Translations under genes and position numbers: made by a program | In this document: positions 666 through 18,499 of the stretch, piece after piece | Layout of the letters: every line of letters starts with the position of its first letter | Numbering within the stretch: the stretch's first letter is position 1 | Source: a virus | Lineage: Duplodnaviria > Heunggongvirae > Uroviricota > Caudoviricetes | Reading direction: 5' to 3' (one strand) | Length of the DNA: 18,499 nt | IMG/VR virus record: IMGVR_UViG_2778261447_000005 | Coordinates: 1-18,499 of that record | Notes under the pieces: model-generated | What the model was told of the DNA's origin: nothing | Seen by the model: the letters and a program-made list of their open reading frames with translations, nothing else | Databases searched by the model: none

Positions 666-668
666 GGT

Positions 669-2121: not shown

Positions 2122-2124
2122 GAT

Positions 2125-3053: not shown

Positions 3054-3691
3054 GATGATATTTCTCCCGCAATGCGGTTCAGTAGCCTGTCGGCAATCAG
3101 CCGTTCATCTGCCGGTGTTATTCCAAGAAGTTCACGGGCCGGATAATCCGTATACACCCCTGCGGCCACCCGGTCGCGCTCCCCGAACTGGTGAACGCGG
3201 GCAATGCGTGCCGCCACGCCGTCATAACCGACGGTCAGACCGCCCGCATCGCCTCTGGCTTTCAGGTAGCGTGCCGTGCGCAGCTTCGCAAACATCGGTA
3301 CGGTCTTTGTGGCGTTGCGGCTGATGCGGCGGGTGCTGATTTCAAGATAACGGGTGATATCCTCCCGGTAGAAGGTGCGCAGGCCTCCCTTATCCTCATC
3401 CCAGCCGGTGATGGTGCGTCCGTGTCTGCTCACGTCGTGATGCCAGTTTTTCAGCGTGCGGGTTTCGTTGTTCCGGATGAAGCGGATACGCTGCTGCAGG
3501 CGGCTGATGCGCCGTCTGCGCGGCTCCCACTGTGTACCGTCCGGCGCTTTCTGTGCGCGCATACGCTGTTGCTGGCTGCGGCGAAGCTCTCTGGCAAGCT
3601 GTCCGGCAATGCGGCTCAGTGCCTGCGGGGAAAGTCCGCTGCTGATGGTCCGCATTGTGCGGTCCAGTTCAGTGAAAGCCCTGTCAGTCAC
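3050..3691 (-). CDS. S: Tail completion / virion morphogenesis protein gpS-like
   Basis: 213 aa ORF, Arg-rich, in P2 S position between R and V. The start at 3691 appears to be GTG with GGGAGG upstream; an alternative ATG lies at 3655. Confidence 0.7.
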   Translation of the reverse strand: MTDRAFTELDRTMRTISSGLSPQALSRIAGQLARELRRSQQQRMRAQKAPDGTQWEPRRRRISRLQQRIRFIRNNETRTLKNWHHDVSRHGRTITGWDEDKGGLRTFYREDITRYLEISTRRISRNATKTVPMFAKLRTARYLKARGDAGGLTVGYDGVAARIARVHQFGERDRVAAGVYTDYPARELLGITPADERLIADRLLNRIAGEISS

Positions 3692-4148
3692 CGGTCACCT
3701 CCCACGTCACATCCTCCAGAATGTGCGACCAGTCGCCGTCCTGCGGGATGCGCGATTTCGGCTCCGGCAGATGTTCCGTTGTGAGGGTGCCGTCATCCCT
3801 GCGGGTGACGCGCACGCGTTCACGTAACGGCAGCTCAAACAGCACGTCCGCGCTGTCGTCGTCGTTAATGGCCGCCGTGAACTGAATATCGTTGTTGCGC
3901 TCAGGATTAAGCAGCAACTGCGGCTGGTTCTCTGCCAGCCAGACAATCAGTGGAAGCGTCAGGTTGTCCAGATCGCCCGTGTAGTCCATCACGAACATCA
4001 CCAGCCGGTAGTTGTACACGAACGTCGGCGTCTCGCCGGTGGTCTCTATCCCGCCACGTTCAATGAACACGGTGAACTTTTCCGGGTTGGCCCTGCACCA
4101 CCGGCACGCTGTACTCATGTGTGTGCTCAGGGATTTACTTTTCAGCAT
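3684..4148 (-). CDS. R: Tail completion protein gpR-like
   Basis: ORF 3684..4232; start chosen at ATG 4148 (MLKSKSL...), ~154 aa, P2 gpR-like length and N-terminus; synteny after lysis genes. Confidence 0.7.
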   Translation of the reverse strand: MLKSKSLSTHMSTACRWCRANPEKFTVFIERGGIETTGETPTFVYNYRLVMFVMDYTGDLDNLTLPLIVWLAENQPQLLLNPERNNDIQFTAAINDDDSADVLFELPLRERVRVTRRDDGTLTTEHLPEPKSRIPQDGDWSHILEDVTWEVTGD

Positions 4149-4449
4149 GCGCCTCTCCGTTCTGTCGGTTGAGTCTCCGGCGCTCCATCGCCTCAATGGC
4201 CCGTTTGTCTGCGTTGCAGGTTTCCAGTGCATCCAGGAGGCTGTCGCTCCATATCCCGATATTTCCCCAGGTGGGGTGTTCAGGGAAGGGCGGGGGCCGT
4301 GTTCCCGTCGTCAGTCCCGCCGGAATGAACCGGAAGGAGGGCGCGGGCAGTGGCGCGTTCCGTGTGTTCGCGCAGCCGGTCAGTAAAACGGTGGTCAGGA
4401 AGAGTGCCGGCGCACTCATCCGTCGCAGCAATTTCGCGAAGCTGTTCAC
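4135..4449 (-). CDS. lysC: Outer-membrane spanin (o-spanin, Rz1/LysC-like lipoprotein), overlapped architecture
   Basis: 104 aa; positive n-region then hydrophobic stretch then lipobox LLTGC, proline-rich mature part with a C-terminal Cys. Starts (GTG at 4449, AGGAAGGAG RBS) inside the i-spanin gene in another frame and extends past its stop. Confidence 0.6.
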   Translation of the reverse strand: MNSFAKLLRRMSAPALFLTTVLLTGCANTRNAPLPAPSFRFIPAGLTTGTRPPPFPEHPTWGNIGIWSDSLLDALETCNADKRAIEAMERRRLNRQNGEAHAEK

Positions 4450-4687
4450 GTCTGACTTCTCCTTCCTGTGCCCTTTTCTGTCGCTGCGTCATCACCTCAT
4501 GCAGTACGGCGGAGGCATCGCTGATAACGGCGGAGGACTCACGCAGCGCCCGGCTGTATTCGCCCAGCTGCTGCTCTGCGGCGTCACGTGCCTCACCGGC
4601 ACGCCCCAGCCGGTATGACTGCCACATGGCCGCCGCCGTCAGGGTGGTCACCATGAGGGCAACAATCACGGCGTAAACCGGTCTCAT
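4280..4687 (-). CDS. lysB: Inner-membrane spanin (i-spanin, Rz/LysB-like)
   Basis: Start at ATG 4687 (MRPVYAVIVALMVTTLTAAAMW...), GGGAGG RBS; single N-terminal TM then charged, coiled-coil-like periplasmic domain; ATGA overlap with endolysin stop. Confidence 0.65.
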   Translation of the reverse strand: MRPVYAVIVALMVTTLTAAAMWQSYRLGRAGEARDAAEQQLGEYSRALRESSAVISDASAVLHEVMTQRQKRAQEGEVRREQLREIAATDECAGTLPDHRFTDRLREHTERATARALLPVHSGGTDDGNTAPALP

Positions 4688-5229
4688 GTGCTGCCTCCCG
4701 TGTCGCGAAGACACCACTGTCTGAACTCCTCCCGGCGGTTAACCAGCCCCTGTGAGCGGCGTCCGCCACTGTTGACAAAATCGGTCAGTCTCCCGCACAT
4801 CGCCACCCAGCGGTGCGCCTGTGCGTGCTTCCAGATGGTGGTGCGCTGCCGGTTGCCGCTCCTGTCCCGGTACCACATCAGGCCGGTACAGCCGACGTTG
4901 AACGCCGCGTCGGTCATCGCCTCAAAGGCGGACTGGGGCATGGCGGCACCGCTGAAGTTCTGGTTGATACAGTTTTCCGCGTGCCGCAGGTCATTCACCC
5001 AGCGGCGGGCCACCTCCTTTTCTCCGTAAACCCGGTTCTCCACGCCCCCTGTTGAACCACATCCCACGGTCATTACTCCTGCAATATCACGGTACGGTGT
5101 CGCCCGGCACTCTTCCCGGGTGGCGATTTTTATCTGTGCTTCCCGTGAGGTTCTCAGTTCACCGGGTGCCATGGAGACGCCCAGCGCCACAATGGCCGCC
5201 ACCGCATAACGTTTTACCGGCAGTTTCAC
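4684..5229 (-). CDS. Endolysin, GH24 (T4-lysozyme-like) with N-terminal SAR/signal-anchor domain
   Basis: 181 aa; hydrophobic Gly/Ala-rich N-terminus (YAVAAIVALGVSMAPG) followed by catalytic E-x8-D-x5-T spacing in EECRATPYRDIAGVMT; C-terminus resembles P21 R21-type SAR endolysins. Start codon appears to be GTG overlapping the holin stop. Confidence 0.85.
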   Translation of the reverse strand: MKLPVKRYAVAAIVALGVSMAPGELRTSREAQIKIATREECRATPYRDIAGVMTVGCGSTGGVENRVYGEKEVARRWVNDLRHAENCINQNFSGAAMPQSAFEAMTDAAFNVGCTGLMWYRDRSGNRQRTTIWKHAQAHRWVAMCGRLTDFVNSGGRRSQGLVNRREEFRQWCLRDTGGST

Positions 5230-5516
5230 CGCTCTTCTCCGTCCTGTCTCACGCTGTCCAGTGCCCGTCTCTCACCGTCGTGAAGCTCGCGGTTTTCTGA
5301 ACGTGCCAGGATGCGGGCGATAAGGTCATTGCGGCGCTTCATTGCCTGCTCCGTACGCCTGCGGTGGCACCAGGCATGGATGGCGGAAAGTGACCCCAGA
5401 AGCAGCCCGGCCAGCGCAATTTTTTCGCTGATGGTCATAACACCAATGGTTGTTGCCGTCACTGACGCCCAGAAGGTGATCCAGTCACTGACGCGCTGAA
5501 AAAATCCCGTCACCAT
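5226..5516 (-). CDS. Holin, two predicted TMDs (class II, pinholin-like topology)
   Basis: 96 aa; two hydrophobic segments (WITFWASVTATTIGVMTI, IALAGLLLGSLSAIHAW) followed by a highly charged C-terminal tail; sits immediately upstream of the endolysin. Confidence 0.75.
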   Translation of the reverse strand: MVTGFFQRVSDWITFWASVTATTIGVMTISEKIALAGLLLGSLSAIHAWCHRRRTEQAMKRRNDLIARILARSENRELHDGERRALDSVRQDGEER

Positions 5517-5707
5517 AGCTTTACCTTTTCGCGTTGCTGTTTCCTTTCCGGCTCCGGCATCTCCACCTCCTGTCCCGCTTCCAGAATTACCTGGCGGCAG
5601 AGCCCTGGATTGGCATCAAGTACCTGTGCGGTCACCCCCTGCGTGGTGCCGTAGTGCCGGAAACAGAGTAAATCGACGGTATCCCCCTGGAGTGCCCTCA
5701 CTTTCAT
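5510..5707 (-). CDS. X: Tail protein gpX-like (LysM-like)
   Basis: Internal start of ORF 5510..5776 at ATG 5707 (MKVRALQGDTVDLLCFRHYGTTQGVTAQVLDANPGL), 66 aa, close to P2 gpX; ATGA overlap with L stop. Confidence 0.8.
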   Translation of the reverse strand: MKVRALQGDTVDLLCFRHYGTTQGVTAQVLDANPGLCRQVILEAGQEVEMPEPERKQQREKVKLW

Positions 5708-6201
5708 CACACCAGCTCCGCAAAAAGACGGGGGCGACCCAGAATATCTGCCACGGACCAGCGCACATCGCGCCATAAGTCTTCCATCTGCTCATCCAGT
5801 GCGTCAGCCCGGCGGTTCCCTTTATCAGTGGTGTCCACATCCCGCCAGCGTTCCAGAATCAGGGCGCGGGTGGCGCTGTAGACGGCGTTGCGGTAATGCC
5901 ATACGTTGACGCTCTCACCGTTGATGGTGGCGGCAGGCACTTCTGCGAGGATGCTGAACCCTGCGGCAGACTGCGCCTTCTGCCACTCTTCCAGCTCCCG
6001 CGTGACGTGAGCCACGGCTCCCGTGGCAACGTGCGCCAGACGTGTGGAGGTGATGCGGCCCGGCAGGCGTACTGCAAGGCGCAGCTCCCGCAGCACAATC
6101 TCCGGCCAGAATGCCCCGGCGGTGATGGTGGCGTCGCCGTCGTCGGTGTCGGGGATATCGTCCCGTGCAGGGGCGGCTTCCGGTCTTGCGACCATGCTCA
6201 T
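5707..6201 (-). CDS. L: Head completion/stabilisation protein gpL-like
   Basis: 164 aa; FWPEIVLRELRLAVRL...INGESVNVWHYRNAVY resembles P2 gpL; AAGGAG RBS; order M-L-X. Confidence 0.85.
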   Translation of the reverse strand: MSMVARPEAAPARDDIPDTDDGDATITAGAFWPEIVLRELRLAVRLPGRITSTRLAHVATGAVAHVTRELEEWQKAQSAAGFSILAEVPAATINGESVNVWHYRNAVYSATRALILERWRDVDTTDKGNRRADALDEQMEDLWRDVRWSVADILGRPRLFAELV

Positions 6202-6304
6202 AAATCGCTCCTTCAGAAAAAAAAGGCGGTGGGTGCCGGGTGTAAGGGGAACGGAAAACCGTAACCGGAACGCCCGGCACGCCGCCTTCTGACGGGGTCA
6301 GCCG

Positions 6305-7081
6305 TTAACCACGTTTCGCCTTCGCTTTCGCCTTCGGCGTCGTGGTCTGTTCTCTGGTTGTATCTTTCTGTGCCGCAGGCTCCTGTGCGGCAGCGGCTTC
6401 ATCCTGTCCGGCCTTTTTCAGGGCCCGTGAAAGCGTGGCAATCTCACGTTTTACCCCCGCATTCGGGTTAAGGTGCATTGCCTCACGGAACAGCTTCAGA
6501 CTCACCGCCATGCTGTCGGCATCGGTCAGGCCACGACGGGCAAAGGCGCATGCCTTGCACAGCTTGGCGCGGACCTCATCGGGCATGTCCCGGTTCGCGA
6601 CAATTTGCCAGAGGGTGTCCAGCGGTTCGATGTAGCCGGACAAATCGGCGTGTGCATCCGTTCCGGCCTGTGTCAGAACAGGGTTGCAGATTTCCTCGGT
6701 CAGTACCGTGGCTGCCGTACGCCCGAAGTTGTCAGGCATCGTGAGGTTGTGGCGAACCACATAATCCCCGATGCGCAGTGCAAGCGCCAGGTCGCCACAG
6801 TCCACGGCCCACACCATGAGTGTGGCTATCACCTCATCCTGCTGTCCGCCGTCGGCTTCCAGCGTGCCGTCTATCCAGCCTGCAAAACCCGGCAGCATTT
6901 CACGCTTGAGCGCGGCCTTTGCCGCTTTTGCCTGGACGCCCTTTATGCGTTGCTGTGCCAGGCGCAGACGGTGAAGGACCTGCTCATGAGCCGTGCGGGC
7001 CACGATATCCTCGTTTTCTGCTGCCGTTCCTGCCCGTAAAGCCATCACGCGCTGGAAATGAGCCTGTGCCGGTGTCAGCAT
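6305..7081 (-). CDS. M: Terminase small (endonuclease) subunit gpM-like
   Basis: 258 aa; MPDEVRAKLCKACAF and a Lys/Ala-rich C-terminal tail as in P2 gpM; follows N. Confidence 0.9.
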   Translation of the reverse strand: MLTPAQAHFQRVMALRAGTAAENEDIVARTAHEQVLHRLRLAQQRIKGVQAKAAKAALKREMLPGFAGWIDGTLEADGGQQDEVIATLMVWAVDCGDLALALRIGDYVVRHNLTMPDNFGRTAATVLTEEICNPVLTQAGTDAHADLSGYIEPLDTLWQIVANRDMPDEVRAKLCKACAFARRGLTDADSMAVSLKLFREAMHLNPNAGVKREIATLSRALKKAGQDEAAAAQEPAAQKDTTREQTTTPKAKAKAKRG

Positions 7082-7083
7082 GG

Positions 7084-8223
7084 TTAATCCTCCTCTTCCC
7101 CTGCATCCCTGTCTTCAGCCTGCGCTGACAGTGCTTTTGTGGCGTCCCGGTACCAGTCCGGCGCGTCATGGTCATATTCGGCAAAGCTGATATTCTCAAT
7201 CAGTGCGCACTTACCATGGTCCTCAACCACATAGCAGTCGTTAACGGACTGATAGATGGCGATACGGTTGTATTCGGGCTCATCCTTCATGAGACGACGC
7301 ATGGACCCCTTCTGCCAGTAAACCGACAGGTTGCTGAATGAGGTGATGAGTCTTGACTGAGCCGGGAAAAATGGCGCAAGGTACACATCAAGGCCGCCAA
7401 TGGTCCGCGTTGACACAATGAGCTGTCCGGCAAGCAGTTCGGCATTCGGATTCTGCATGCTCATACTGTTCAGGACCGGCAGGCGCAGGGAGTTAAAGAG
7501 GTTTCGCCCCATGATGACAACGAGGTCGTCTGCGTCCTTGTGCCATTCGTCAAGCAGGGATGAGCGTGCATCCTGGACCAGTGCATCGGGATTGGCGTAT
7601 CTGCCGGTGTATGCCACCGAATTGTCCATATTGCGCGCAGTCAGCATCACGTCTTTCATGACGCGTTGCGGGGCCTGGTCCCTGATATCCTGCAGCCACC
7701 CCTTATTGATGTCCTCAAGTCGCGGGTGTTTTTTTATATCCGAGACTTCCGCATGGTGCGTACCGTTAAAACCTGTCATGATGCGATCAAGTGCCACCTG
7801 TCTGGCAATCTGGCGACTCACACGCAGCTGGAAGTCAGGGTGTCCGGCCCACATGTCAAGCTGAGGGTAGGAGATGAAGGTGTCGTAGTTCACCTGCTCG
7901 CACTCATAGCGTCGCGCTTTCATGTCCACCACATTCAGCGGGTTACGACGATTTGTGCCGTCATAACTGCTGTTCGTGCGCGCAACCGGCCCGGTGGTGT
8001 CCAGGAGTACCTTTTCACCTTTCTGCTCTGTCACACCAATGCTGTTGACTTTCTGAAGAAAATCATGGCTTTCCTTTGATGCGTTTTCAAATCTCTGCTG
8101 CACTGCCGGTTGTACCGAAAAGCGGGAGGAGAGCGCAGATATCGTGATGTTATTCATCTCTGCCTGTTGTGCCTGGTAAGCAAAAAGCTCGGCCCGCGCG
8201 GCATCGCTCATGATCAGATTCAT
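7084..8223 (-). CDS. N: Major capsid protein gpN-like
   Basis: 379 aa; motifs RRYECEQVNYDTFISYPQLDMWAGHPDFQLRVSRQIA and GFNGTHHAE resemble the P2 gpN family; AGAGGTGA RBS before ATG 8223; between O and M. Confidence 0.85.
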   Translation of the reverse strand: MNLIMSDAARAELFAYQAQQAEMNNITISALSSRFSVQPAVQQRFENASKESHDFLQKVNSIGVTEQKGEKVLLDTTGPVARTNSSYDGTNRRNPLNVVDMKARRYECEQVNYDTFISYPQLDMWAGHPDFQLRVSRQIARQVALDRIMTGFNGTHHAEVSDIKKHPRLEDINKGWLQDIRDQAPQRVMKDVMLTARNMDNSVAYTGRYANPDALVQDARSSLLDEWHKDADDLVVIMGRNLFNSLRLPVLNSMSMQNPNAELLAGQLIVSTRTIGGLDVYLAPFFPAQSRLITSFSNLSVYWQKGSMRRLMKDEPEYNRIAIYQSVNDCYVVEDHGKCALIENISFAEYDHDAPDWYRDATKALSAQAEDRDAGEEED

Positions 8224-8251
8224 CGGTTATCACCTCTTGTGGTTATTTCTG

Positions 8252-9088
8252 TCAGTAGTCAGCCAGTTGTCTGGACTGCCCGCCGGTTGCCGTAAAACGA
8301 CTTTTCTGATCAGCGTCCAGTCCGCGCAGTCTGTTTTTCAGCTCTGCCAGCTCAGTGGACAGGGTGGCGACTTTCTGTCTGTCTGCCTGATGGCGCGATT
8401 CCAGTGCACTGAAGCGGTCGAGAAGGTCGGCATGCGATGAGGCTATCCCCTCAACGGCGTCATGAATGCGGGAGAACCGGGTGTCGTCAGCCCTGCGTCC
8501 TCGCCCAATCATGTTCATCACGCGGTTAAACCACTGCGCACCTTCCTCGCTGCGGCGCTCCGTCAGTTCGATCACTTCAGCCTCAATGGCGTCAGAGAAC
8601 ATCGGTGCTTCCGTCTGCTGATTATTGAAGGTCATGACCGAACGGCGCTGCTGCAGGGCGAACTGAAGACGCTCCGTGCCGATGCTTGCCGGGGTGTCTG
8701 TCATGGCAAGGCCAATAAGATACGGGGTGCCCGTAGGGGTGAAATTTCGTGCCAGCTCAATACTGGAGTAAATTTTCTTACCCCGGGAGACCAGATTTTT
8801 CATGCGGTCGGTGGGTTCGATTTCCGCATACAGCGCAGTACGACCGGCCAGCGGACCTTCGGTGATTTCTTCTGTGCTCAGTGCCGTCACATCACCCATG
8901 GCGGAAAATTCACTGGACGGAACCGGTGAAAGCCAGTGCTCCACGTTCACGCGTGCGCCGTAAATCTCAGGGTTGAAGTTACTGGCCGCCGCGCGCAAAT
9001 CTGCGGCGCTGATTTCGCGACCGTCTGCGGTGGGACCGGAAACGGCCACGCGGAATGTTTTACGGGATGTTTTTTTCTGTTCAGGCAT
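8252..9088 (-). CDS. O: Capsid scaffolding protein gpO-like
   Basis: ORF 8252..9229 trimmed to internal ATG 9088 (MPEQKKTSRKTFRVAVSGPTADGREISAADL...), 279 aa, GAGGG RBS; resembles P2 gpO N-terminus and length. The upstream 47 codons of the track ORF would invade the promoter region. Confidence 0.85.
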   Translation of the reverse strand: MPEQKKTSRKTFRVAVSGPTADGREISAADLRAAASNFNPEIYGARVNVEHWLSPVPSSEFSAMGDVTALSTEEITEGPLAGRTALYAEIEPTDRMKNLVSRGKKIYSSIELARNFTPTGTPYLIGLAMTDTPASIGTERLQFALQQRRSVMTFNNQQTEAPMFSDAIEAEVIELTERRSEEGAQWFNRVMNMIGRGRRADDTRFSRIHDAVEGIASSHADLLDRFSALESRHQADRQKVATLSTELAELKNRLRGLDADQKSRFTATGGQSRQLADY

Positions 9089-9156
9089 TGTCGGGCCCTC
9101 GTGATGATCGTTTGTCTCATGATGGCAAAACGGGGCAGGGACAGACAAAGTGCGTT

Positions 9157-9180
9157 TGTTGTAAGCGAATGCCGACAACA
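9157..9180. promoter_or_regulatory. Ogr/Delta-type late-promoter activator site (TGTTGT-N12-ACAACA dyad) in divergent O/P intergenic region
   Basis: Read directly: TGTTGTaagcgaatgccgACAACA, a perfect TGT-N12-ACA dyad with extended arms, centred ~55 bp upstream of a candidate -10 (TAAACT, ~9213-9218) for the P/Q operon. Confidence 0.5.
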
Positions 9181-9242
9181 CCGGGCATGGCAGGAGGCCT
9201 GTAAGGGGTGAGTAAACTGCCTGAATCACATGAGGGGGAGAA

Positions 9243-10994
9243 ATGATTCAGGATACATTTGTTCGCCAGCGGGCACGCCAGCTGTACTGGCAGGGTTACC
9301 CTGTTGCGGAAATTTCCCGCCTTATGGGTATCAACCAGAACACGATCCATTCGTGGAAAAAACGCGACCAGTGGGATGAGACGCCCCCGGTTCAGCGTGT
9401 CACGCAGTCCATGGATGCGCGACTCATTCAGCTCACGGAAAAACAGAATAAAACAGGCGGGGACTTTAAGGAAATTGATTTGCTGACCCGTCAGCTTAAA
9501 AAGCTGCATGACGGTCTGCCGGATGAGACGGCAACAGGAAAGAAAGGCCGGGCGAAAAAACGCAAAAATCATTTCACGCCGGAACAGATCGCGGCGCTGC
9601 GGGAAAAAATTACCGACAGGCTGGCCGGACACCAGCGCAAATGGCTTGATGCTATCGGTGCCTGTGAGCGTGCCGGAATTACTGACAGGATGATCCTGAA
9701 ATCCCGCCAGATTGGGGCGACCTGGTATTTTGCGCAGGAAGCGCTGCTGATGGCGCTGCGTGACGATGTGGCACAACCTTACCAGCGTAACCAGATTTTT
9801 TTGTCTGCGTCTCGTCGTCAGGCGCTCCAGTTTAAAAGCATTATTCAGAAGGCTGCATCTGAAGTTGATGTGGAACTGAAAGGGGGCGATAAAGTCATCC
9901 TCTCCAACGGTGCAGAGCTGCATTTTCTCGGCACTTCTGCGGCCACCGCGCAAGCGTACACAGGGAATCTGTATTTTGATGAGTTTTTCTGGACGGGGCG
10001 TTTCGCAGAGCTGCGCAAGGTGGCTGCTGCTATGGCAACGCTGGATGGTTTGCGGTGTACCTATTTTTCCACGCCATCAAGTGAAACACATGAGGCGTAT
10101 GCATACTGGAACGGCGATCACTGGAATGAAGGGCTTCGTACTCATAAACGTCAGCATTTTGATGTGAGCTGGAATGCGCTTCATAACGGCCTTATCTGTC
10201 CTGACTATATCTGGCGGCAAATTGTGACGCTGGAAGATGTGGTCAGTCAGGGATGGACGTTAACCAACATTGACAAAATCCGGCGCAATAACACTGAAGA
10301 CGAGTTCCGCAATCTCTACATGTGTGAATTTGCTCGCGAAGGGGAATCGGCATTTAACCTGAATATCCTGATTGGCTGCGGTGTTGACGGATACGACGAG
10401 TGGCCGGACTGGAAGCCGTTTGCACCGCGTCCGATGGGGAACCGCCCTGTGTGGATTGGGTACGACGCCAACGGCAGTAGCGGGAACGGTGACAGCGGGG
10501 CGGTTGTCGTGGTGGTGCCGCCAGCCGTACCGGGCGGGCGTTTTCGCACCGTGGAGACGCGGCGGGTGCAGGGGCTGGAGTTTGAGGCGCAGGCGAAGGT
10601 GATTGAAGAGTTCACCTTTCGCTATAACGTTGAGCATATCGGTATTGACGTAACCGGCGGTCACGGGGATGCGGTGTATCAGATTGTGAAGCGCTTTTTT
10701 CCGGCAGCCATTCCCTACACCTTCACCCTGTCATCAAAGCGCACGCTGGTTCTGAAGATGCTGCAGCTCATGCGCGCCGGGCGGTGGGAGTACGACCGCA
10801 GCGAGCGCGAACTGGTGAGCGCCTTTAACGCGGTACGCAAAACAAAAACGCAGGCCGGATTTATCACCTACGAAACAGATCGCGCAAGAGGCGTAAGCCA
10901 TGGCGATCTTGCATGGGCCACCATGCTGGCCGTTATCAACGAACCTGTCGGCGGTGAACATGATGCCGCCCCCTTCAGTGTTACGGAGTTCTGA
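9243..10994 (+). CDS. P: Terminase large (ATPase) subunit gpP-like
   Basis: 583 aa; N-terminus with QLYWQGYPVAEISRLMGIN...HSWKKRDQWDE matches P2 gpP-type terminases; GAGGGGGAG RBS; divergent from O as in P2. Confidence 0.9.
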   Translation: MIQDTFVRQRARQLYWQGYPVAEISRLMGINQNTIHSWKKRDQWDETPPVQRVTQSMDARLIQLTEKQNKTGGDFKEIDLLTRQLKKLHDGLPDETATGKKGRAKKRKNHFTPEQIAALREKITDRLAGHQRKWLDAIGACERAGITDRMILKSRQIGATWYFAQEALLMALRDDVAQPYQRNQIFLSASRRQALQFKSIIQKAASEVDVELKGGDKVILSNGAELHFLGTSAATAQAYTGNLYFDEFFWTGRFAELRKVAAAMATLDGLRCTYFSTPSSETHEAYAYWNGDHWNEGLRTHKRQHFDVSWNALHNGLICPDYIWRQIVTLEDVVSQGWTLTNIDKIRRNNTEDEFRNLYMCEFAREGESAFNLNILIGCGVDGYDEWPDWKPFAPRPMGNRPVWIGYDANGSSGNGDSGAVVVVVPPAVPGGRFRTVETRRVQGLEFEAQAKVIEEFTFRYNVEHIGIDVTGGHGDAVYQIVKRFFPAAIPYTFTLSSKRTLVLKMLQLMRAGRWEYDRSERELVSAFNAVRKTKTQAGFITYETDRARGVSHGDLAWATMLAVINEPVGGEHDAAPFSVTEF

Positions 10995-12049
10995 TGAGCA
11001 GAAAAAATAAACAACGACGTACGAACGCCCGCGCAGCGCAGGGCAGCCTTGCGGATTCCCTGCGAAGCGACCCGACACTAAGTGCCTTCACGTTTGAAGG
11101 ACCTTACCGGCTGTCAGGGGCCGACCTGCTGGACAGCATGTACTGCGCCGACAACGGGCGGTGGTTTGAAACGCCCGTTGACTGGTACGGACTGGCACGG
11201 GCTGCCCGCCAGACGTCCTGGCACCAGTCGGCGCTCAGCTTCAAACGTAATGTGCTGCTGGGCTGCTATATTCCACATCCTCTGCTGTCCCGCCAGGAGT
11301 TCGCCGGGGTGGCGATGGACTGGTTTGTGTTCGGTAATGCCTGTCTTGAGCTGCGGCGCAACATGCTTGGCGAACCGCTGGCCCTGCGCCGGGCGCTGGC
11401 GAAATACATGCGACGTGGCAGCGATATGAAATCATGGTGGTATATACAGGAAGGACAGGAAGAGTACCGCTTTCGTGAGGGGACGATATGCCACCTGATG
11501 AATCCTGATATCAACCAGGAGATTTACGGGATGCCGGATTACCTGGGCGGCCTGCTGTCTGCCAGCCTGTCACATTCCGCCGATATCTTCCGCAAGCTCT
11601 ACTACGATAACGGCTCACACGCGGGCTGTATTGTCTACATCGGTGCGGCGCAGGTTGACCGTGAAAGCATGGAAAAACTGCGGGAAACACTGCAAAGCGC
11701 GCGTGGTGGCGGGGCGTTTAAAAATCTGCTCATCCACGCGGCGGGAGGTGGTAAGGATGGCGTACAGATTTTGCCGTTTCAGCAAATCACCGCAAAGGAT
11801 GAGTTCATGAACGTCAAGGCTGCATCGCGTGATGATGTGCTGTCCGTGCACCGTGTACCGCCGCAGCTGATGGGGGCCATGCCGGGTGAGAAGGGGTCAT
11901 TCGGGGATGTGGAGAAGGCAGCCCGTGTGTTTGCCATTAACGAACTGATGCCCGTCATGGAAGCAATGAAACACGTCAACGACTGGCTGGGCGAAGAGGT
12001 GATCCGTTTTAACCCTTACGCACTGTTAGACACCCAGCCCATATCCTGA
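10994..12049 (+). CDS. Q: Portal (capsid vertex) protein gpQ-like
   Basis: 351 aa; SAFTFEGP, NGRWFETPV, PDINQEIYGMPDYL, GKDGVQILPFQ and QLMGAMPGEKGSFGDVEKAARVF match P2 gpQ as I recall it; start overlaps P stop. Confidence 0.9.
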   Translation: MSRKNKQRRTNARAAQGSLADSLRSDPTLSAFTFEGPYRLSGADLLDSMYCADNGRWFETPVDWYGLARAARQTSWHQSALSFKRNVLLGCYIPHPLLSRQEFAGVAMDWFVFGNACLELRRNMLGEPLALRRALAKYMRRGSDMKSWWYIQEGQEEYRFREGTICHLMNPDINQEIYGMPDYLGGLLSASLSHSADIFRKLYYDNGSHAGCIVYIGAAQVDRESMEKLRETLQSARGGGAFKNLLIHAAGGGKDGVQILPFQQITAKDEFMNVKAASRDDVLSVHRVPPQLMGAMPGEKGSFGDVEKAARVFAINELMPVMEAMKHVNDWLGEEVIRFNPYALLDTQPIS

Positions 12050-12075
12050 CGCGCTTCGCTTGTCTGCTGCTTCGC

Positions 12076-12100
12076 CGGGGCATAAAAAATTTATGCCCCG
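12076..12100. terminator. Perfect 11-bp stem / 3-nt loop hairpin between convergent Q and the 12116 ORF
   Basis: cGGGGCATAAAaaaTTTATGCCCCg read directly; lies 27 nt after the Q stop and 16 nt after the convergent ORF stop. No flanking U-tract, so terminator function is inferred from position only. Confidence 0.45.
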
Positions 12101-12115
12101 ACTCTCCAGCTCTGC

Positions 12116-12619
12116 TTAACGAAGTGCTGATGGCGCTCGCTTTTTCAGGTGATTAGCGATGTGCTTTTTCATGTGCATAACAACATCGCCCCAGGCTTCT
12201 TCGCTGGGTTTATTGATAAATACGCGAACAGAAATATCGTCTTCCACCCGGACTCTCAGAGACACCCGTTCCGCATCTACTGAATATAATTCAAGTGCAA
12301 TAACCACGCTTACCGGGTAGCTGCTGTCAGATGACTTAACCCAGGTTCGCACGGCCATGCGGAAAATATTGTCTGGTGCAGATGCGATATTGTGGACTGA
12401 AAGAGGACTAAAATCCGCCGCTGTCTTACATGGCAAGCCTGTCTCCACGTAGCGGTGCAGGTCGCCATCATCGTCTTCCCAGTACATGGATGGAAGCCCC
12501 AGCCATTCTTCATAGAAATCAATCAGCCTTGCCGCTTCATCCCGCAAAATTTGAGCTGCCTCAGCGCGTTTTTCTTCAGCTTCACGATTGATCTGGCATA
12601 AATCATTAAAGTGGCTCAT
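12116..12619 (-). CDS. Hypothetical protein, unrecognised family (accessory/moron candidate); alternative in-frame start at 12826/12829 would give ~237 aa
   Basis: ATG 12619 is preceded by AAGAGGA at optimal spacing (MSHFNDLCQINREAEEKRAEAAQILRDEAARL..., 167 aa). The same frame stays open 70 codons further upstream (TTG-ATG at 12829/12826) but without an RBS. No resemblance to P2 structural or replication proteins that I can recall. Confidence 0.55.
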   Translation of the reverse strand: MSHFNDLCQINREAEEKRAEAAQILRDEAARLIDFYEEWLGLPSMYWEDDDGDLHRYVETGLPCKTAADFSPLSVHNIASAPDNIFRMAVRTWVKSSDSSYPVSVVIALELYSVDAERVSLRVRVEDDISVRVFINKPSEEAWGDVVMHMKKHIANHLKKRAPSALR

Positions 12620-13045
12620 GACATTATCCTCTTTTGAGTTGATGCCTGCCGCTATTCTGACTTTGCCCGGGTTCTCCTGCAAGCTGGTTATTCCTTCAGA
12701 TAATTTCACAACATCTCCAACCTTGTAGCCATCATCGCCGGGCGGATGCTTACGCAACCCCGCAACTCTGACGACATATTCTCGCTGCCTCAGTGCGATT
12801 TTGACGGCCTTATCTTTCACCCCCATCAAATCAAGCTTTTACGTCTTTTTTACGCTCAGCGTGAGAAATACAGCCATTCTGTTGTGTCGCTGCAACATCG
12901 TTCAGGGAATGCTATTTACCCCCTGAAACGCGGGCTGTTCCCCCGTCACCTGCGCGCAGAAAAAGGCCTTTTTTCGTGCACGCACGGATCCCCGACGGAT
13001 CCAGACGCCACACGGGCCGGAAGGGCAAAAAGTCGTTCAAAAAAA

Positions 13046-13072
13046 TTGTGCAAATTTGTGCACTATTGTGCA
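13046..13072. repeat. Three perfect direct repeats of TTGTGCA at exact 10-bp phasing
   Basis: aTTGTGCAaatTTGTGCActaTTGTGCAttg read directly (13046, 13056, 13066), immediately adjacent to the terminator hairpin, inside a ~280-bp non-coding stretch. Confidence 0.5.
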
Positions 13073-13080
13073 TTGAAATA

Positions 13081-13103
13081 AACGCCCTGGAGGAGGGCGT
13101 TTT
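13081..13103. terminator. Rho-independent terminator, probably bidirectional; ends the minus-strand A-linked operon
   Basis: AACGCCCTggaggAGGGCGTT (8-bp GC-rich stem, 5-nt loop) followed by TT on plus and by TTTATTTCAAT on minus; begins 7 nt after the stop of the 13110..13511 ORF. Confidence 0.65.
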
Positions 13104-13109
13104 GCTCAT

Positions 13110-13511
13110 CTATTTATAGCCTTGCCCCTTACTGGCCAGCGCCCTGATGGCAGGGCGTGCCAACACCATATTTTGGCAATGATGAATTGCCCGGCAAAAT
13201 TCATCTCTACCCATTGGATGCTCAACTGGCAATGTAAAATACAGGTTCCATGCATCGCCTAAAAGTTGGGCTATCTTTTGTTCTTCAGATGTCAGCAAGC
13301 GGTACTCCCCATCCTTGATGTAGTCACTTGTGCCATCGACCTGCTGTTCTGCAATGTGGAAAGCACCTATTGGTTTTGCTTCCAGCGATGCCAAAGCAAT
13401 CCGTGCCAGTTTTTCCGCTTCTTCGGCTGGCAGTACAACGTTGCTACCAGGTCCGTATGTTTCGCGCCACTGCCTGATTGTCAGTAGTCGCTCTTTGGTT
13501 ATAGTGGTCAT
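13110..13511 (-). CDS. Hypothetical protein (133 aa), last gene of A-linked cassette
   Basis: ATG 13511 overlaps the upstream stop (ATGA); GAGGAT RBS; ends just before the terminator. Sequence MTTITKERLLTIRQWRETYGPGSNVVLPAEEAEKLARIALASLEAK... not recognised. Confidence 0.55.
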   Translation of the reverse strand: MTTITKERLLTIRQWRETYGPGSNVVLPAEEAEKLARIALASLEAKPIGAFHIAEQQVDGTSDYIKDGEYRLLTSEEQKIAQLLGDAWNLYFTLPVEHPMGRDEFCRAIHHCQNMVLARPAIRALASKGQGYK

Positions 13512-13717
13512 TTGTTAATCCTCAAAACTTTATGCCCGGGCGCAAAAGCACGAGTTTTGTCTTTGCTTATTCGCCAGCCATCCTTACGCGCCTCTTTTGC
13601 ACAGCCAGTCCATGACGTACCGATATATTCACCGAAGTCTGGCGTTTGATATTTACCATTTGTACACTGGCGACAATCACAATAGAGATGCATGGTGTAA
13701 CTTGCGGCAATAGCCAT
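13508..13717 (-). CDS. Hypothetical small Cys-cluster protein (69 aa), possible zinc-binding
   Basis: ATG 13717 with AGGAG RBS; contains C-x-C-x2-C ... C (HLYCDCRQC...WTGC); stop overlaps the next start. Confidence 0.5.
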   Translation of the reverse strand: MAIAASYTMHLYCDCRQCTNGKYQTPDFGEYIGTSWTGCAKEARKDGWRISKDKTRAFAPGHKVLRINK

Positions 13718-13718
13718 A

Positions 13719-14033
13719 TCAGTCTCCTTTGATGCCAGTGTTTACAACCTGACAAGCCTCTTTGAGCACCCAGTCAACAGCGTCTTGCCATGCTCCGGTT
13801 TCGACTGGCGGATTCTCACGCTTTACCAGTTCATAGAAACGTACTGCTCTAACCAGTCCATCTGACGGTTTTACCTGTAGTGCAGCCTGAGCTATGCGGT
13901 ATACCTGGAGCATACAGGCGTCGTTGATATCCATTCCGAATGGAATATCTGATGACTGAGATTCCACATCTTCCAGCCTGGCAATTTCTTTACGTAAGAA
14001 GCCTTTCAGTTCCTGCTTCTGTTTCCTGTTCAT
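13719..14033 (-). CDS. Hypothetical protein (~104 aa)
   Basis: The track ORF 13719..14048 starts on a TTG; the first ATG at 14033 (MNRKQKQELKGFLRKEIARLEDVES...) has a GAAGGA RBS. Family not recognised. Confidence 0.5.
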   Translation of the reverse strand: MNRKQKQELKGFLRKEIARLEDVESQSSDIPFGMDINDACMLQVYRIAQAALQVKPSDGLVRAVRFYELVKRENPPVETGAWQDAVDWVLKEACQVVNTGIKGD

Positions 14034-14044
14034 ATATTTTTCCT

Positions 14045-14239
14045 TCAAAGTTCGGTTCGCTGACAGGGTTTCTCTTTACGGCAGACAATGACGCTTCCTT
14101 TGCTCGAGTCGGTGATTGTTACCGTGCCGTCATCACACTGGACAATGACAACGGTGTTGCTCTTTTTCGCTACGCAGTTCGGCGTGGCTGATTGTGCGAA
14201 TGGCGCGAAAAACAGCAGAAAAAGTAATATTCTGCTCAC
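14045..14239 (-). CDS. Hypothetical small secreted protein (64 aa precursor, ~45 aa mature, 4 Cys)
   Basis: GTG start at 14239 overlapping the upstream stop (GTGA), GGGAGG 8 nt upstream. Product MSRILLFLLFFAPFAQS|ATPNCVAKKSNTVVIVQCDDGTVTITDSSKGSVIVCRKEKPCQRTEL has a classic type-I signal peptide with an AQS-type cleavage site. The track's longer 123-aa version would overlap the upstream gene out of frame. Confidence 0.5.
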   Translation of the reverse strand: MSRILLFLLFFAPFAQSATPNCVAKKSNTVVIVQCDDGTVTITDSSKGSVIVCRKEKPCQRTEL

Positions 14240-14667
14240 TGTTGTTTCCTCCCGTTCTGTGCTGGTCTGGCGAATGAATTGCGTTGTGGTGAAAAGACCA
14301 TTCGCGCCAGCGCGGCCTTGTGATTGACTGTGTTCAGTGTTCTGGCCAGTCCGCCGTTGTGCCTGCGTGTCCGCTCTTCGTGATATCTCTGCATGATTTT
14401 CCCGGCAGGCGTGCACGGCTCCGGTTCCTCCGGCGAACGGCGCGGACGAATGACGACAGTCCAGCTATGGCTCTCGCTGCCCGGCCGCCTGTTGAGTATG
14501 TCGGCGATGGTGGTCTCCGTGGTGCGATCGGGGCTGACTATCGTGATTTCCAGCTCGTCGCCCGGTTGTGGCCTTGTGGCAGGCCTGAACAGTGTCAGCA
14601 CCGGCATACGCTGGCGCATGATGGCCTCAAACTGTGGGCGCTGCATGGTGCAGCAAAATCGCGTCAT
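14236..14667 (-). CDS. Hypothetical Arg-rich protein (143 aa), translationally coupled to A
   Basis: ATG 14667 overlaps the A stop (ATGA) and is preceded by GGAGG; at the position of P2 orf91 but longer, and I do not recognise the sequence. Confidence 0.5.
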   Translation of the reverse strand: MTRFCCTMQRPQFEAIMRQRMPVLTLFRPATRPQPGDELEITIVSPDRTTETTIADILNRRPGSESHSWTVVIRPRRSPEEPEPCTPAGKIMQRYHEERTRRHNGGLARTLNTVNHKAALARMVFSPQRNSFARPAQNGRKQQ

Positions 14668-17174
14668 GCTCCCGCCTCCACTGGCTGCTCTGTGATGATG
14701 TGACGGGCTGACTCATCCCAGTACGCTGTTCCCCCGTTATCCAGACGCACACGGGCACCGTTACGCACGGAGATGATGGCCGCGTCAGGCAACTGCACAC
14801 CCAGCGCATCAAGTTCGCGGGCGATTTGCGTGTCCGTCGCGGTATCCGCAGGCACGACAATCCCCACCCTTACAGGGGTGTCAGATGCCGGTGTGGTGTC
14901 GTTTTGTCCGGTTTTTGCGCCCGACGGCTGATTTTTAATCTGATTACGCAGTTTTCTCCGATCGCCCCTGCTTAACGTATTCAGCCAGCTTTCCAGGTTC
15001 TCTTCGGGAAGCGTCAGTCGTCCGGGGTCCTGCCTGTTTTCTGGTCCGTGATTGTCTGTTTTTTCATCCCGGGGACAGTTATTGCCACGAGTCCAAGGGG
15101 CGACGGGGTCGCCCTGAAGGTCAAAACCCTCGCCCGTGCGGTTGTCTGGTGTTGTTTCTTTTTTAACCAGTTTCCACTCGTCCGGATGGGTGCATATGGT
15201 GTACCGCTCTCCGAGCGACGGGGCGCAGATTCCGTAGATACGTTGAGGGAATTCACCGTAGTCGTTGGCTTCGTCTGCGGTTTCGTATGCGGTGCGGACC
15301 AGATACTGGTTGCGCGGAATGAGCACACCACCCTGTTTCATGATGTAGGTGGCAAAACATCCCACATCTGCGGCAGCCATAATGGCGTCAATATCGTCAT
15401 GATCGAGGTGCTTCGGTGATGCCGGGTTGCGCTCCATCTGGCTTGCAAGGCGGCGGAGTTCACGCCATACCTGGCGGGGCGGAATGCCGAAAAACTGGAA
15501 CTGACGGATGCGGTGAAGGCTTGCCCAGGCAATGGCGTTCTCCACGGTTTCCGCCATGGTTTTCCCGGATTCCTCATCAACGTAAGGTTTTCCGGTTTTC
15601 GGATCATTGTTGTGGAAAGCGCTGGCGTCCAGGTTCTTACCGATATAGGTTGCGATATAGCTTGCCGGTGTGCCTTTTTCCGGGTCTATCTTCTCGCATT
15701 TAAAGCGCGGTGAAATATCGTCCCCCAGTTCGTGGCGATCTGATTTAATTGCTGCTTCGCGCATAATTTCGATGATGCGCTCTGCGTTCTCCGGGGAAGT
15801 GAATACCAGCATATGCCAGTGTGGCGTGCCGTCATGGTGTGGCTCAGCGGTTCGCACGCCGTACCAGCCCAGCCCCTCTTTTTTTATTTTTTTTCTTACG
15901 GCTGCGAAGAAGTCGTAAACCAGATAATCACTGGCATCTCGTACTGTGGCACCGTTGTATTTCGGGTTCAGGCTGCCGTTCTCGTTCACGCTGTGAAAGC
16001 GGGAAGGGGTGGTTACTGTGATGAAGAATGCGACGTCAGCCCGTAATTCGGCCACCATCTCCATCCCTCTGACGCAGACCATCATTTCATTGCGGCGGTT
16101 GCGTGGATTACCCAGGCCAGCCCAGTACACGTCCTCCAGACTCAGGCGCTCGCCGTCTTCGTTTTCAATATCCCAGCTTTTGAGAAAGTCACGGGTGCGC
16201 TGGCGCTTCTCGCGGAACTCCAGTAGTGACTCATGGCTGATATAGGGGGATTGTTTACGTGACACTCTGCCGGCGGCGCGCAGTAACTCCTCCCGCCAGA
16301 GATCGGCGACGTGGCGTAACTGGTTGTTCCACCAGGTCGCGCAGGTGATGCGCAGTACCGCACCCGGAACCCGTTCAGGGTCCGGCGGTGTGCGTCGGTT
16401 GTGCCTGATTTCGAGTTCCGGCCAGTATGGCGGGACCACGCCCAGAATTAAGGCTGTGCGTGCCACCTTCTGGTAGGCCAGCAGCCAGATAACAGGGCTG
16501 TCATTATCCTTGCCTGTCCGTTCAAGAACTTCATCACATATGCGTTCAAATTCTGCGGCGAATGCCTGGGCTGTCAGTGTGGCGATGCGCTGGATTTCGT
16601 CACGGGTGAGTTGCGGCAGTGTGAGCAGTTCTTCAAGGCGATGGCGCACGACGGTGGTTTTGAATGCCGGCGTTGCAAAGCGGTCGTTAACCCTTTCAAT
16701 ACGTTTCAGGCGCGCACGCAGTCCACGGCGAACGAAATTATCGGCCACGTATGCGCTGTTGTTTTTTACACCTTCACTGCGGGCACTTTGCTGTTTCCGG
16801 TTCAGTCGTGCCAGATCACGGATCAACACACTGGCAAGAAACGAGGGCAGGGTGCGAAGTTCGGCTATCGCCTCCGATACCGCCGTTGGCGGATTTTCGC
16901 GTCTGTGTCGTGCCAGCTTATCCAGCCTTATCTGCCGCTCTTCGTCCCGGTGAAGGTGTGAATTAATTTGCTTACCTTTGTCCGTGGTTGTCAGGAAGGC
17001 CACGGTTTCTTCATCCAGCCGGGCCTCAGTGCGAATGTCTTCGGTGAGGTAGTCACGGATTGCCCGTTGTAATGCGGTTGGCTTCTGCGGTAATGCTCTG
17101 CCGAATGTCTCAGGATCAATAACCGGCAGCGGGGCGTTCCACGGGTACGCCAGGTGCGTGTGGTGATGGCTCAT
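14664..17174 (-). CDS. A: Replication initiation protein gpA-like (HUH rolling-circle endonuclease)
   Basis: 836 aa; YPWNAP near the N-terminus, HUH motif in EPHHDGTPHWHMLVF, catalytic-Tyr motif SYIATYIGKN; all match P2 gpA as I recall it. GGGGAG RBS. Confidence 0.9.
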   Translation of the reverse strand: MSHHHTHLAYPWNAPLPVIDPETFGRALPQKPTALQRAIRDYLTEDIRTEARLDEETVAFLTTTDKGKQINSHLHRDEERQIRLDKLARHRRENPPTAVSEAIAELRTLPSFLASVLIRDLARLNRKQQSARSEGVKNNSAYVADNFVRRGLRARLKRIERVNDRFATPAFKTTVVRHRLEELLTLPQLTRDEIQRIATLTAQAFAAEFERICDEVLERTGKDNDSPVIWLLAYQKVARTALILGVVPPYWPELEIRHNRRTPPDPERVPGAVLRITCATWWNNQLRHVADLWREELLRAAGRVSRKQSPYISHESLLEFREKRQRTRDFLKSWDIENEDGERLSLEDVYWAGLGNPRNRRNEMMVCVRGMEMVAELRADVAFFITVTTPSRFHSVNENGSLNPKYNGATVRDASDYLVYDFFAAVRKKIKKEGLGWYGVRTAEPHHDGTPHWHMLVFTSPENAERIIEIMREAAIKSDRHELGDDISPRFKCEKIDPEKGTPASYIATYIGKNLDASAFHNNDPKTGKPYVDEESGKTMAETVENAIAWASLHRIRQFQFFGIPPRQVWRELRRLASQMERNPASPKHLDHDDIDAIMAAADVGCFATYIMKQGGVLIPRNQYLVRTAYETADEANDYGEFPQRIYGICAPSLGERYTICTHPDEWKLVKKETTPDNRTGEGFDLQGDPVAPWTRGNNCPRDEKTDNHGPENRQDPGRLTLPEENLESWLNTLSRGDRRKLRNQIKNQPSGAKTGQNDTTPASDTPVRVGIVVPADTATDTQIARELDALGVQLPDAAIISVRNGARVRLDNGGTAYWDESARHIITEQPVEAGA

Positions 17175-17179
17175 TCCGC

Positions 17180-17593
17180 TTACTCCCCTGCTGTTGCCTT
17201 CTCAAATGCAGCCCGGTACAGCACAAGAAGGCGCTGGTATTCAGCGATAAAGTCTTCTGCTGTTTTAATCCCTTTCACGACCACGCTGTGGGTGGTCATT
17301 TCCAGAACGAGCACCATTTCTGACGATGACCAGCTGATAACGCTGCTGTCGCACCCGTTGATGTGGAACAGGCCCAGCACCATGCTGTGGTTCTGGTCTC
17401 TGACATCCACGCGGTAACGGTCATCAACGGTGAAGGAAAAATTCCCGTATGTGGTGGCGCTGCTGGCGGCCTGTTTACAGGCGCGGCGGTAATAGTCATG
17501 CAGGTCATTGAGACGGGAAGCGAGGCGTGGATCCACCGCCCACATCCAGTTAAAAAAATCCTGAATATCTGAAAGTCCCTTAACGCTCTTCAT
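17180..17593 (-). CDS. Hypothetical early-operon protein (137 aa) immediately upstream of A
   Basis: ATG 17593 with GGAGG RBS; stop 5 nt before the A start; P2 orf80-83/B position but the sequence is not recognised. Confidence 0.55.
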   Translation of the reverse strand: MKSVKGLSDIQDFFNWMWAVDPRLASRLNDLHDYYRRACKQAASSATTYGNFSFTVDDRYRVDVRDQNHSMVLGLFHINGCDSSVISWSSSEMVLVLEMTTHSVVVKGIKTAEDFIAEYQRLLVLYRAAFEKATAGE

Positions 17594-17661
17594 GAGAACC
17601 TCCGGAAACGGACGTGCGGAAGCCTCCCGCGTACGGGGGCGGGATGGCTCCGGGATGTTGA

Positions 17662-17889
17662 TTAGTGGTGGTAGTGCTGGTTAATGAGGTCCTGCAGCTT
17701 GCGCAGGTCATCCGCCAGGTAGCTGAATACAGCGGCGGAATACATGTTTGACAGTGCGTGGCTGCGCTCATGCAGCATATTGATGTGCATGATATGCGCG
17801 ACGCGGAATGCGCGGGAAAGTCTGCGGTTGATTTCAGTCTGGATGTGACGACGCGCAGCGTATGCGCGCTGTTGTTTGCGGTTTGCCAT
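17662..17889 (-). CDS. Hypothetical small basic early protein (75 aa)
   Basis: ATG 17889 with GAAGAGG RBS; first ORF downstream of the putative early control region; Arg/His-rich N-terminus. Confidence 0.45.
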   Translation of the reverse strand: MANRKQQRAYAARRHIQTEINRRLSRAFRVAHIMHINMLHERSHALSNMYSAAVFSYLADDLRKLQDLINQHYHH

Positions 17890-17937
17890 GGTGTTTGGCC
17901 TCTTCGTTTGTGAGTTTTTGGATACTCACCATCCAGA

Positions 17938-17977
17938 GGTTGCAATTCTGGGTGGCGAGACGTACAGGGTTGCAACC
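17938..17977. promoter_or_regulatory. Two GGTTGCAA boxes 30 bp apart (second is the perfect palindrome GGTTGCAACC) upstream of the early operon; candidate operator and -35 elements
   Basis: agaGGTTGCAAttctgg at 17938-17945 and cagGGTTGCAACCacc at 17968-17977, read directly. TTGCAA resembles a -35 hexamer on either strand. Located 50-90 bp upstream of the 75-aa ORF start. Confidence 0.4.
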
Positions 17978-18070
17978 ACCGGCAAACGAAGAAACCGGCC
18001 CGACCGAAGTCGGCCCCGTACGCCCCACCATAATTCTGGTGCGAAAAAGACGTGGCGATACGGTACGCAC

Positions 18071-18091
18071 AAAAAAACCGCTGGCGCGGTT
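18071..18091 (-). terminator. Putative rho-independent terminator on minus strand
   Basis: On the minus strand AACCGCgccaGCGGTT (6-bp stem, 4-nt loop) followed by a T-run of ~7; lies ~120 nt downstream of the truncated ORF ending at 18213. Confidence 0.45.
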
Positions 18092-18113
18092 GTGCGCTTC
18101 GTTTGTCAGCGGG

Positions 18114-18121
18114 GGTTGCAA
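18114..18121. promoter_or_regulatory. Third GGTTGCAA box embedded in a near-palindrome
   Basis: cgGGGGTTGCAAtcccgg read directly; same 8-mer as the two boxes at 17938-17977. Confidence 0.35.
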
Positions 18122-18212
18122 TCCCGGCACCCGTTTTATGAGGTGCAGCGGAAATGTAACCTGACTGATTGCGGCATGGCAAGCGGTTTTTTTGTGTGTG
18201 CATAGTGGTTAC

Positions 18213-18437
18213 TCAGTCCGGTAGCAGTTCGCAAAGCACGGTGTCAGCGGCGGTATATCGTGCGTAAAGCCGGGCGAGGACCCATCTTTTAAGGGATATC
18301 CCGGTCGTGTCCCGGATGTACTTTCTGATTTCGCTGAATGTCATCCCCTGTTCATCGCGCAGTTCAGTTACCAACTCCACCAGGTGATTGAAGTGGTTTA
18401 CTGAATTTGGCCACCTGAACAGAGGTGATATGCTCAC
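18213..18437 (-). pseudogene. Early-region ORF whose 5' end is provided by the IS terminus (likely 5'-truncated gene or IS-fusion artefact)
   Basis: The track ORF starts on a GTG at 18437, inside the IS end (IS begins ~18389). The native part encodes ...LVELVTELRDEQGMTFSEIRKYIRDTTGISLKRWVLARLYARYTAADTVLCELLPD. An internal ATG at 18344 could give a 43-aa product but has a poor RBS. Confidence 0.35.
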
Positions 18438-18499
18438 CTCAGAACAACACAGGTGCCATAATGAAAAAAAGAAATTTCAGCGCAGAGTTTAAACGCGAA
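18389..18499 (+). mobile_element. IS3-family insertion sequence (IS911-like), left end; element continues beyond window
   Basis: Terminus TGAAGTGGTTTACTGAATTTGGCCACCTGAACAGAGGTGATATG (IS3-family ends start with TG), followed 72 bp in by an ORF starting MKKRNFSAEFKRE, the characteristic N-terminus of IS911-type OrfA as I recall it. Confidence 0.75.
18461..18499 (+). CDS. IS3-family transposase OrfA, first 13 codons only
   Basis: ATG 18461; MKKRNFSAEFKRE...; runs off the window end. Confidence 0.75.
   Translation, partial: MKKRNFSAEFKRE

Follow-up and report, generated by a model that had tools for sequence, protein, structure and literature searches.

What has become of lysogeny control in a prophage whose available sequence breaks off inside an insertion element? 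The window, the whole stretch of 18,499 bp analysed here, ends on its right side within an insertion sequence (IS) situated beside the early control region. The first-pass annotation had read this arrangement as an insertion that truncates an early gene and, as no C-type repressor, cox or integrase was seen between the control region and the IS, as an event that may have inactivated or rewired the lysogenic switch. Sequence comparison places the prophage among the P88-like phages (Xuanwuvirus, Peduoviridae, P2-related) and not with classic P2. The window holds baseplate, lysis and head genes, terminase, portal and cargo open reading frames (ORFs), equally a gpA-type replication endonuclease (836 aa), a 137-aa ORF and a P4-epsilon-like derepression gene; the long ORFs of the structural and replication genes are equal in length to those of relatives, and the visible 18.4 kb are without decay. 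Phage P88 and the Citrobacter phage Shae_phiSM (phiSM) share the gene order int, C, cox, small early genes, IsrK, C4 and derepression gene, which continues as in the window with a small ORF, gpA and P2-type structural genes, at a DNA identity of 88-90% over the IsrK/C4-derepression region. On the other hand, neither phage carries an IS at this site, P88 holds a Band_7-like gene in the slot occupied here by a gene for a 184-aa protein, and the lineage of the window differs from both by a divergent 160-aa gene upstream.

The element itself is readily recognized. Positions 18389-18499 match the first 111 bp of ISEc52 in 111 of 111 positions (E = 2e-50) and the matching copies are annotated as "IS3-like element ISEc52 family transposase". 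In a search with this segment, the best match reaches an identity of at least 99% in 1,299 records. The element has a match in 4,193 of 5,426 complete E. coli genomes, with a median of 1 and a maximum of 24 copies of ISEc52-type sequence per genome. In the reference copy of 1,250 bp from E. coli Nissle (L003 1501-2750), the terminal repeats of 27 nt are imperfect and 78% complementary (TGAAGTGG...CCACTTCA) and have TG...CA as their ends, the full-length OrfA matches Pfam HTH_Tnp_1 (6e-14) and OrfB matches rve (DDE; 1e-31), an AAAAAAG slippery run (A6G) is present, and a 3-bp duplication (GTT/GTT) flanks the element. Just 9% of the element lies inside the window, and this visible part shows the same left inverted repeat and the same orfA start as the reference without any difference. 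The segment is thus identified, from this match, as ISEc52, an IS3-family element closely related to IS911, and the earlier designation as an IS3-family, IS911-like element is upheld by the 111 identical positions. The visible N-terminus of OrfA is the same as in IS911 OrfA, which makes the label "IS911-like" a fair one.

Comparison with the uninterrupted locus, which had been suggested beforehand, sets the boundary to the nucleotide. The alignment of the whole window to uninterrupted prophages extends from position 1 to 18388 and ends exactly there. When 17580-18499 was compared by megablast with the complete E. coli genomes, 10 records showed 100% identity over 17580-18388, none of which continues into the IS; all 809 bp adjoining the junction are identical to relatives, and these relatives show the gene intact. 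The window reads ...CCAGGTGAT/TGAAGTGGTTTAC... at the junction versus ...CCAGGTGAT/CGCTGTATC... in the relative, the longer reading of the relative side being CGCTGTATCTGG. As window and relatives part after 18388, the left end of the IS is at 18389. An insertion at 18213-18499 had been proposed; the insertion itself stands, with the match starting at 18389, while the boundary at 18213 does not, as this position is the stop codon of the truncated ORF. The GAT that precedes the junction is predicted to be duplicated at the right end of the IS, beyond the contig. The coordinates of all features are collected in the table.

Features of the control region and the insertion in the window, with the basis of each assignment
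Feature	Position	Strand	Basis
P4-epsilon-like derepression gene, intact, first gene downstream of the RNA module	17662..17889	-	Pfam PF25738 Derepression, 28.2 bits vs cut-off 27
C4 / P4 CI-type antisense RNA	17948..18035	-	Rfam RF01695, 79.3 bits vs gathering score 45
IsrK-like RNA (P4 seqA-type leader)	18071..18146	-	Rfam RF01394, 61.9 bits vs gathering score 50
Promoter-like TTGCCA-18-TACATT, directly upstream of isrK	18153..18182	-	Consensus promoter scan
3' remnant of the interrupted gene, residues 128-184 and stop	18213..18388	-	100% DNA identity to relatives
Chimeric 74-aa ORF, 17 IS-derived and 57 native codons	18213..18437	-	GTG start 49 nt inside the IS
Predicted target site GAT	18386..18388	.	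Inferred from the 3-bp duplication at the reference copy
ISEc52 start, contig end inside the element	18389..18499	+	100% over 111 bp to annotated copies
Left terminal inverted repeat (IRL) TGAAGTGGTTTACTGAATTTGGCCACC	18389..18415	+	Same as left arm of the reference copy
Transposase orfA, first 13 codons (MKKRNFSAEFKRE)	18461..18499	+	Translation

That the sequence stops in the IS has a technical reason. The window is the entire draft contig NOCS01000074.1 (18,499 bp) of assembly GCA_002549495.1, and the capsid variant specific to the window is found on exactly one contig of the public collection, namely this one. On the left, the contig breaks off in a tail-fibre gene that recurs within genomes (median of 2 and maximum of 12 places per genome for its first 200 bp), and on the right it breaks off 111 bp into the multi-copy ISEc52. 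Both contig ends bear the usual signature of short-read assembly breaking at repeats; an assembler working with short reads does not get past a multi-copy repeat, hence the stop inside the IS. The extension beyond 18499 that had been suggested is therefore not possible within this contig.

The gene that has been hit can be reconstructed from the relatives, in which it is intact (L001 6634-7188, minus strand, 555 bp, 184 aa, WP_001111137.1). The insertion splits it inside codon 127 and so separates the last 57 codons, which remain within the window, from the promoter and the first 126 codons, whose place is beyond the IS. The encoded protein matches phrog_323 "transcriptional regulator" (1.9e-27), while several helix-turn-helix Pfam matches, all below threshold, are spread along its length. 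Its homologues form a small enterobacterial family labelled "DNA-binding protein" by the sources and occur in the same slot of P88-like early regions, upstream of an IsrK/C4-derepression block or of an Ash-family gene. Phage P88, which was recovered by induction and is able to lyse many strains of E. coli (PMC5285337; PMC6456863), lacks the gene in its early region according to a tblastn search, and the homologue with 85% identity in phiSM belongs to a plaque-forming phage (PMC6456863). Since the gene is absent from viable P88 and frameshifted or deleted in other assemblies, it is probably dispensable. Equally, it is regarded as an accessory gene with a probable regulatory role. A function as immunity repressor has been considered and is ruled out by the gene order in relatives and the absence from P88.

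The statements that the minus-strand gene is 5'-truncated and that the IS is placed in the early region therefore agree with the comparison, as relatives carry the intact 184-aa version of which residues 128-184 have been kept here and the interrupted gene is located directly upstream of the IsrK/C4 module. It is equally correct that the IS supplies the apparent GTG start of the minus-strand ORF. This GTG has, as read by eye from the sequence, no Shine-Dalgarno motif in front of it, and the minus strand shows no promoter-like site, either over 18389-18499 or over a whole ISEc52 copy. On these grounds, the chimeric 74-aa ORF is treated as a by-product of ORF finding that is probably not expressed. 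A protein look-up gave no record of the chimeric ORF, with either V or M as first residue, nor of a 43-aa form with an internal start.

The control region itself is not a P2 C/cox switch: isrK and C4 are both found by Rfam above the gathering thresholds, and no divergent C repressor/cox pair with adjacent integrase lies between 17900 and 18499. Region 17900-18200 is identified from these matches as an IsrK/C4 RNA module of known kind with its own promoter. Neither 17500-18499 nor the reconstructed locus has any consensus promoter match besides the promoter-like site, which is separated from the IS by 207 bp and has been left unchanged by it; isrK ends in an intrinsic terminator (18091-18076) with a T run behind it. 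The loop of C4, CUUCGUUUG, shows complementarity to CAAACGAAG, a 9-mer found within isrK and again over the ribosome-binding site of the derepression gene, which occurs three times (two target sites and the complement in C4) versus 0.15 expected; the predicted energies of the two C4-target duplexes are -25.9 and -23.6 kcal/mol. The derepression gene is annotated as "derepression protein" in relatives, and the IsrK and C4 pair is conserved in P88 and Shae_phiSM.

IsrK corresponds to seqA and C4 to the CI RNA of phage P4 (Barquist et al. 2013, PMC3632133), and the immunity region of P4 with seqA, CI RNA and seqC upstream of epsilon and alpha finds its counterpart here in the matching isrK and C4 hits and the complementary sites. 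In P4, however, the module precedes the alpha primase, whereas here it precedes a gpA-type replication gene, and it resides inside a P2-type helper-like phage whose relatives encode the protein C repressor and Cox. The module, 17902-18182 on the minus strand, can thus be seen as a putative P4-type RNA control inside a P2-related phage. The literature ties IsrK-C4 to P4, P1, P7, N15 and lambdoid prophages, and a literature search found no paper describing the pair in P88-like phages.

Where, then, is the lysogeny module? The uninterrupted relatives examined (L001, L002, L006-L013, P88 and phiSM) all have the genes for repressor, Cox and integrase intact 2.8-5.2 kb past the insertion point. After the 184-aa gene follow in relatives the divergent 160-aa gene, about eight small early genes and a Cox-family gene, and beyond Cox a 113-aa HTH_3 repressor on the opposite strand, a tyrosine integrase and then dmsA. 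Absence of C, cox and int from the window does not imply their loss, because the window ends before their usual position. Their absence had been taken as a sign of damage, which the position of the module 2.8-5.2 kb farther on in relatives does not bear out; as judged from the relatives, a stretch without C, cox and int between the control region and the insertion site is the normal architecture of this phage group.

We consider a simple insertion of ISEc52, with the remainder of the prophage beyond the IS on another contig and the immunity switch not hit, to be the correct reading with a probability of about 75%. A copy of 1,250 bp would have transposed into codon 127 of the 184-aa gene of a P88-like E. 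coli prophage, by a copy-out/paste-in process via a circular intermediate as expected from IS3-family biology, leaving a 3-bp GAT duplication. The N-terminal fragment of the gene, the small early genes, Cox, the C-type repressor and the integrase, as well as the attachment site beside dmsA, would be located beyond the IS in the same draft assembly. The 809 identical base pairs and the ORF lengths as in relatives fit a recent insertion into an otherwise intact prophage, and transposition in the IS3 family by default ends in a simple insertion. Alternatively, an IS-mediated deletion or inversion, for example by recombination of two ISEc52 copies, might have left a truncated, trapped prophage in which the N-terminal part of the gene, and possibly cox, C and int as well, would be lost or at least displaced from the neighbourhood. 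Only a single end of the IS is visible, up to 24 ISEc52-type copies per genome could serve as recombination substrates and the lineage has large internal deletions that end in the 184-aa gene (codon 63 fused to gpS in L030). Moreover, the predicted right junction, searched for exactly with a spacer of 0-6 bp in viral, genome and metagenome contig collections, was not found there, and eight predicted fusion proteins of the N-terminal fragment and the IS, built for various contig-end positions, are absent from the protein collection. These negative searches say little, however, as the DNA collections left out the other contigs of the source assembly and the look-up of fusion proteins depends on guessed contig-end positions; with the undecayed 18.4 kb and the default course of IS3-family transposition on the other side, a rearrangement is regarded as unlikely. 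Extremely improbable is a chimeric contig end with no real IS at this place: the junction lies 111 bp from the contig end, and the observed left junction was encountered neither by exact search in the same viral, genome and metagenome contig collections nor in any complete E. coli genome, but window and relatives part precisely where the IS terminal repeat (TGAAGTGG...) begins, as expected of a true insertion and hardly to be expected of a random misjoin.

The earlier proposal that lysogeny control has been inactivated or rewired, either by displacement of repressor, cox and integrase or by an outward promoter borne on the IS, is highly improbable in the light of the same comparisons. The family gene order places the IS between the Cox-side early promoter and gpA, so that a polar effect is plausible, and the interrupted protein resembles a transcription regulator (phrog_323). 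Yet C, Cox and Int are normally encoded past the insertion point and not at it, viable P88 does without the interrupted gene, and the IsrK promoter, IsrK, C4, the epsilon-like gene and gpA are all intact; with the repressor module away from the site and the IsrK/C4 block unharmed, the claim of an inactivated or rewired switch finds no support. Towards the early genes the IS presents its left inverted repeat, which carries no outward promoter-like site; none was found in the visible 111 bp, the whole ISEc52 copy or the reconstructed junctions, and the suggested IS promoter directed at the early operon has accordingly been dropped. In IS911, an outward-facing -35 element resides in the right repeat. 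A corresponding element at the right end of ISEc52, if as in IS911, would be directed, in antisense, at the N-terminal fragment of the gene. That the IS contributes an outward or hybrid promoter was considered and rejected, as no consensus promoter is found at the observed left or the reconstructed right junction.

If the simple insertion of ISEc52 is accepted, its consequences would be confined to the loss of one accessory, regulator-like protein and a probable polarity on transcription from the Cox-side early promoter, while the block of IsrK/C4, epsilon and gpA would keep its own promoter. Transposase transcription runs away from IsrK/C4, from the epsilon-like gene and from gpA. Among deposited genomes with a match to this region, sizes lie between 33.7 and 40.3 kb, so the extra 1.25 kb is unlikely to prevent packaging. 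A more far-reaching effect, that the IS acts as a natural separation-of-function mutation which separates Cox-side early transcription from the block gated by IsrK/C4 and makes replication and antirepressor expression dependent on the IsrK promoter alone, seems quite unlikely. If true, the strain could be used to test whether read-through from the P2-type switch is required in P88-like phages for escape from their own P4-type RNA immunity; with the prophage beyond the IS intact, it would represent a natural polar mutant for the cooperation of a P2-type switch with a P4-type RNA module. Insertion of an IS into an accessory gene of an E. coli prophage and a contig that ends in an IS are both routine and already known. 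The value of the analysis is rather a corrective one, as the loss of repressor, cox and integrase is unsupported and the control region is the IsrK/C4 module typical of P88-like phages.

The interrupted gene has met other fates in related prophages. In GCA_900448525.1 (L011 8826-9378), it is present in two frames covering residues 1-86 and 86-184, either by prophage decay or by sequencing error; the large terminase gene of this prophage is split, too. In several assemblies, among them CP100530.1 (L030 5001-5830), the gene is cut after codon 63 and fused to gpS by a deletion, estimated at about 14-15 kb, in which IsrK/C4, gpA, cargo, portal, terminase, head and lysis genes are lost. In the window, a gap in gpS at 3629-3702 marks a shift of the identity to the closest relative from 96% to 99.8%, which suggests a recombination breakpoint in gpS at this place, possibly near the endpoint of the deletion of the L030 type.

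Further observations concern the neighbourhood. The 160-aa gene (L001 7423-7905, plus strand), next to the insertion point in relatives, is oriented divergently from the interrupted gene and against the direction of the early operon; it belongs to phrog_6315, function unknown, and shows a weak SLATT-domain match below threshold and nothing significant in PADLOC and Pfam scans. It may be a moron or a defence-type gene that shares its promoter region with the interrupted gene. Between integrase and dmsA, on the host side of the attachment site, the STnc130 small RNA is recognized by Rfam with 125.8 bits (L001 12059-12193). The cargo and early ORFs from portal to gpA (12116-14667, minus strand) encode 237, 133, 69, 109, 123 and 143 aa, with no Pfam match among five of them (the 123-aa ORF left out) and no PADLOC match among four. 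In at least three complete genomes, the 237-aa cargo gene beside the portal is split by the IS21-like element ISEc12 (L032 14143-16445), at a site that corresponds to about 12116-12829 of the window; IS insertions in accessory genes of this prophage thus recur.
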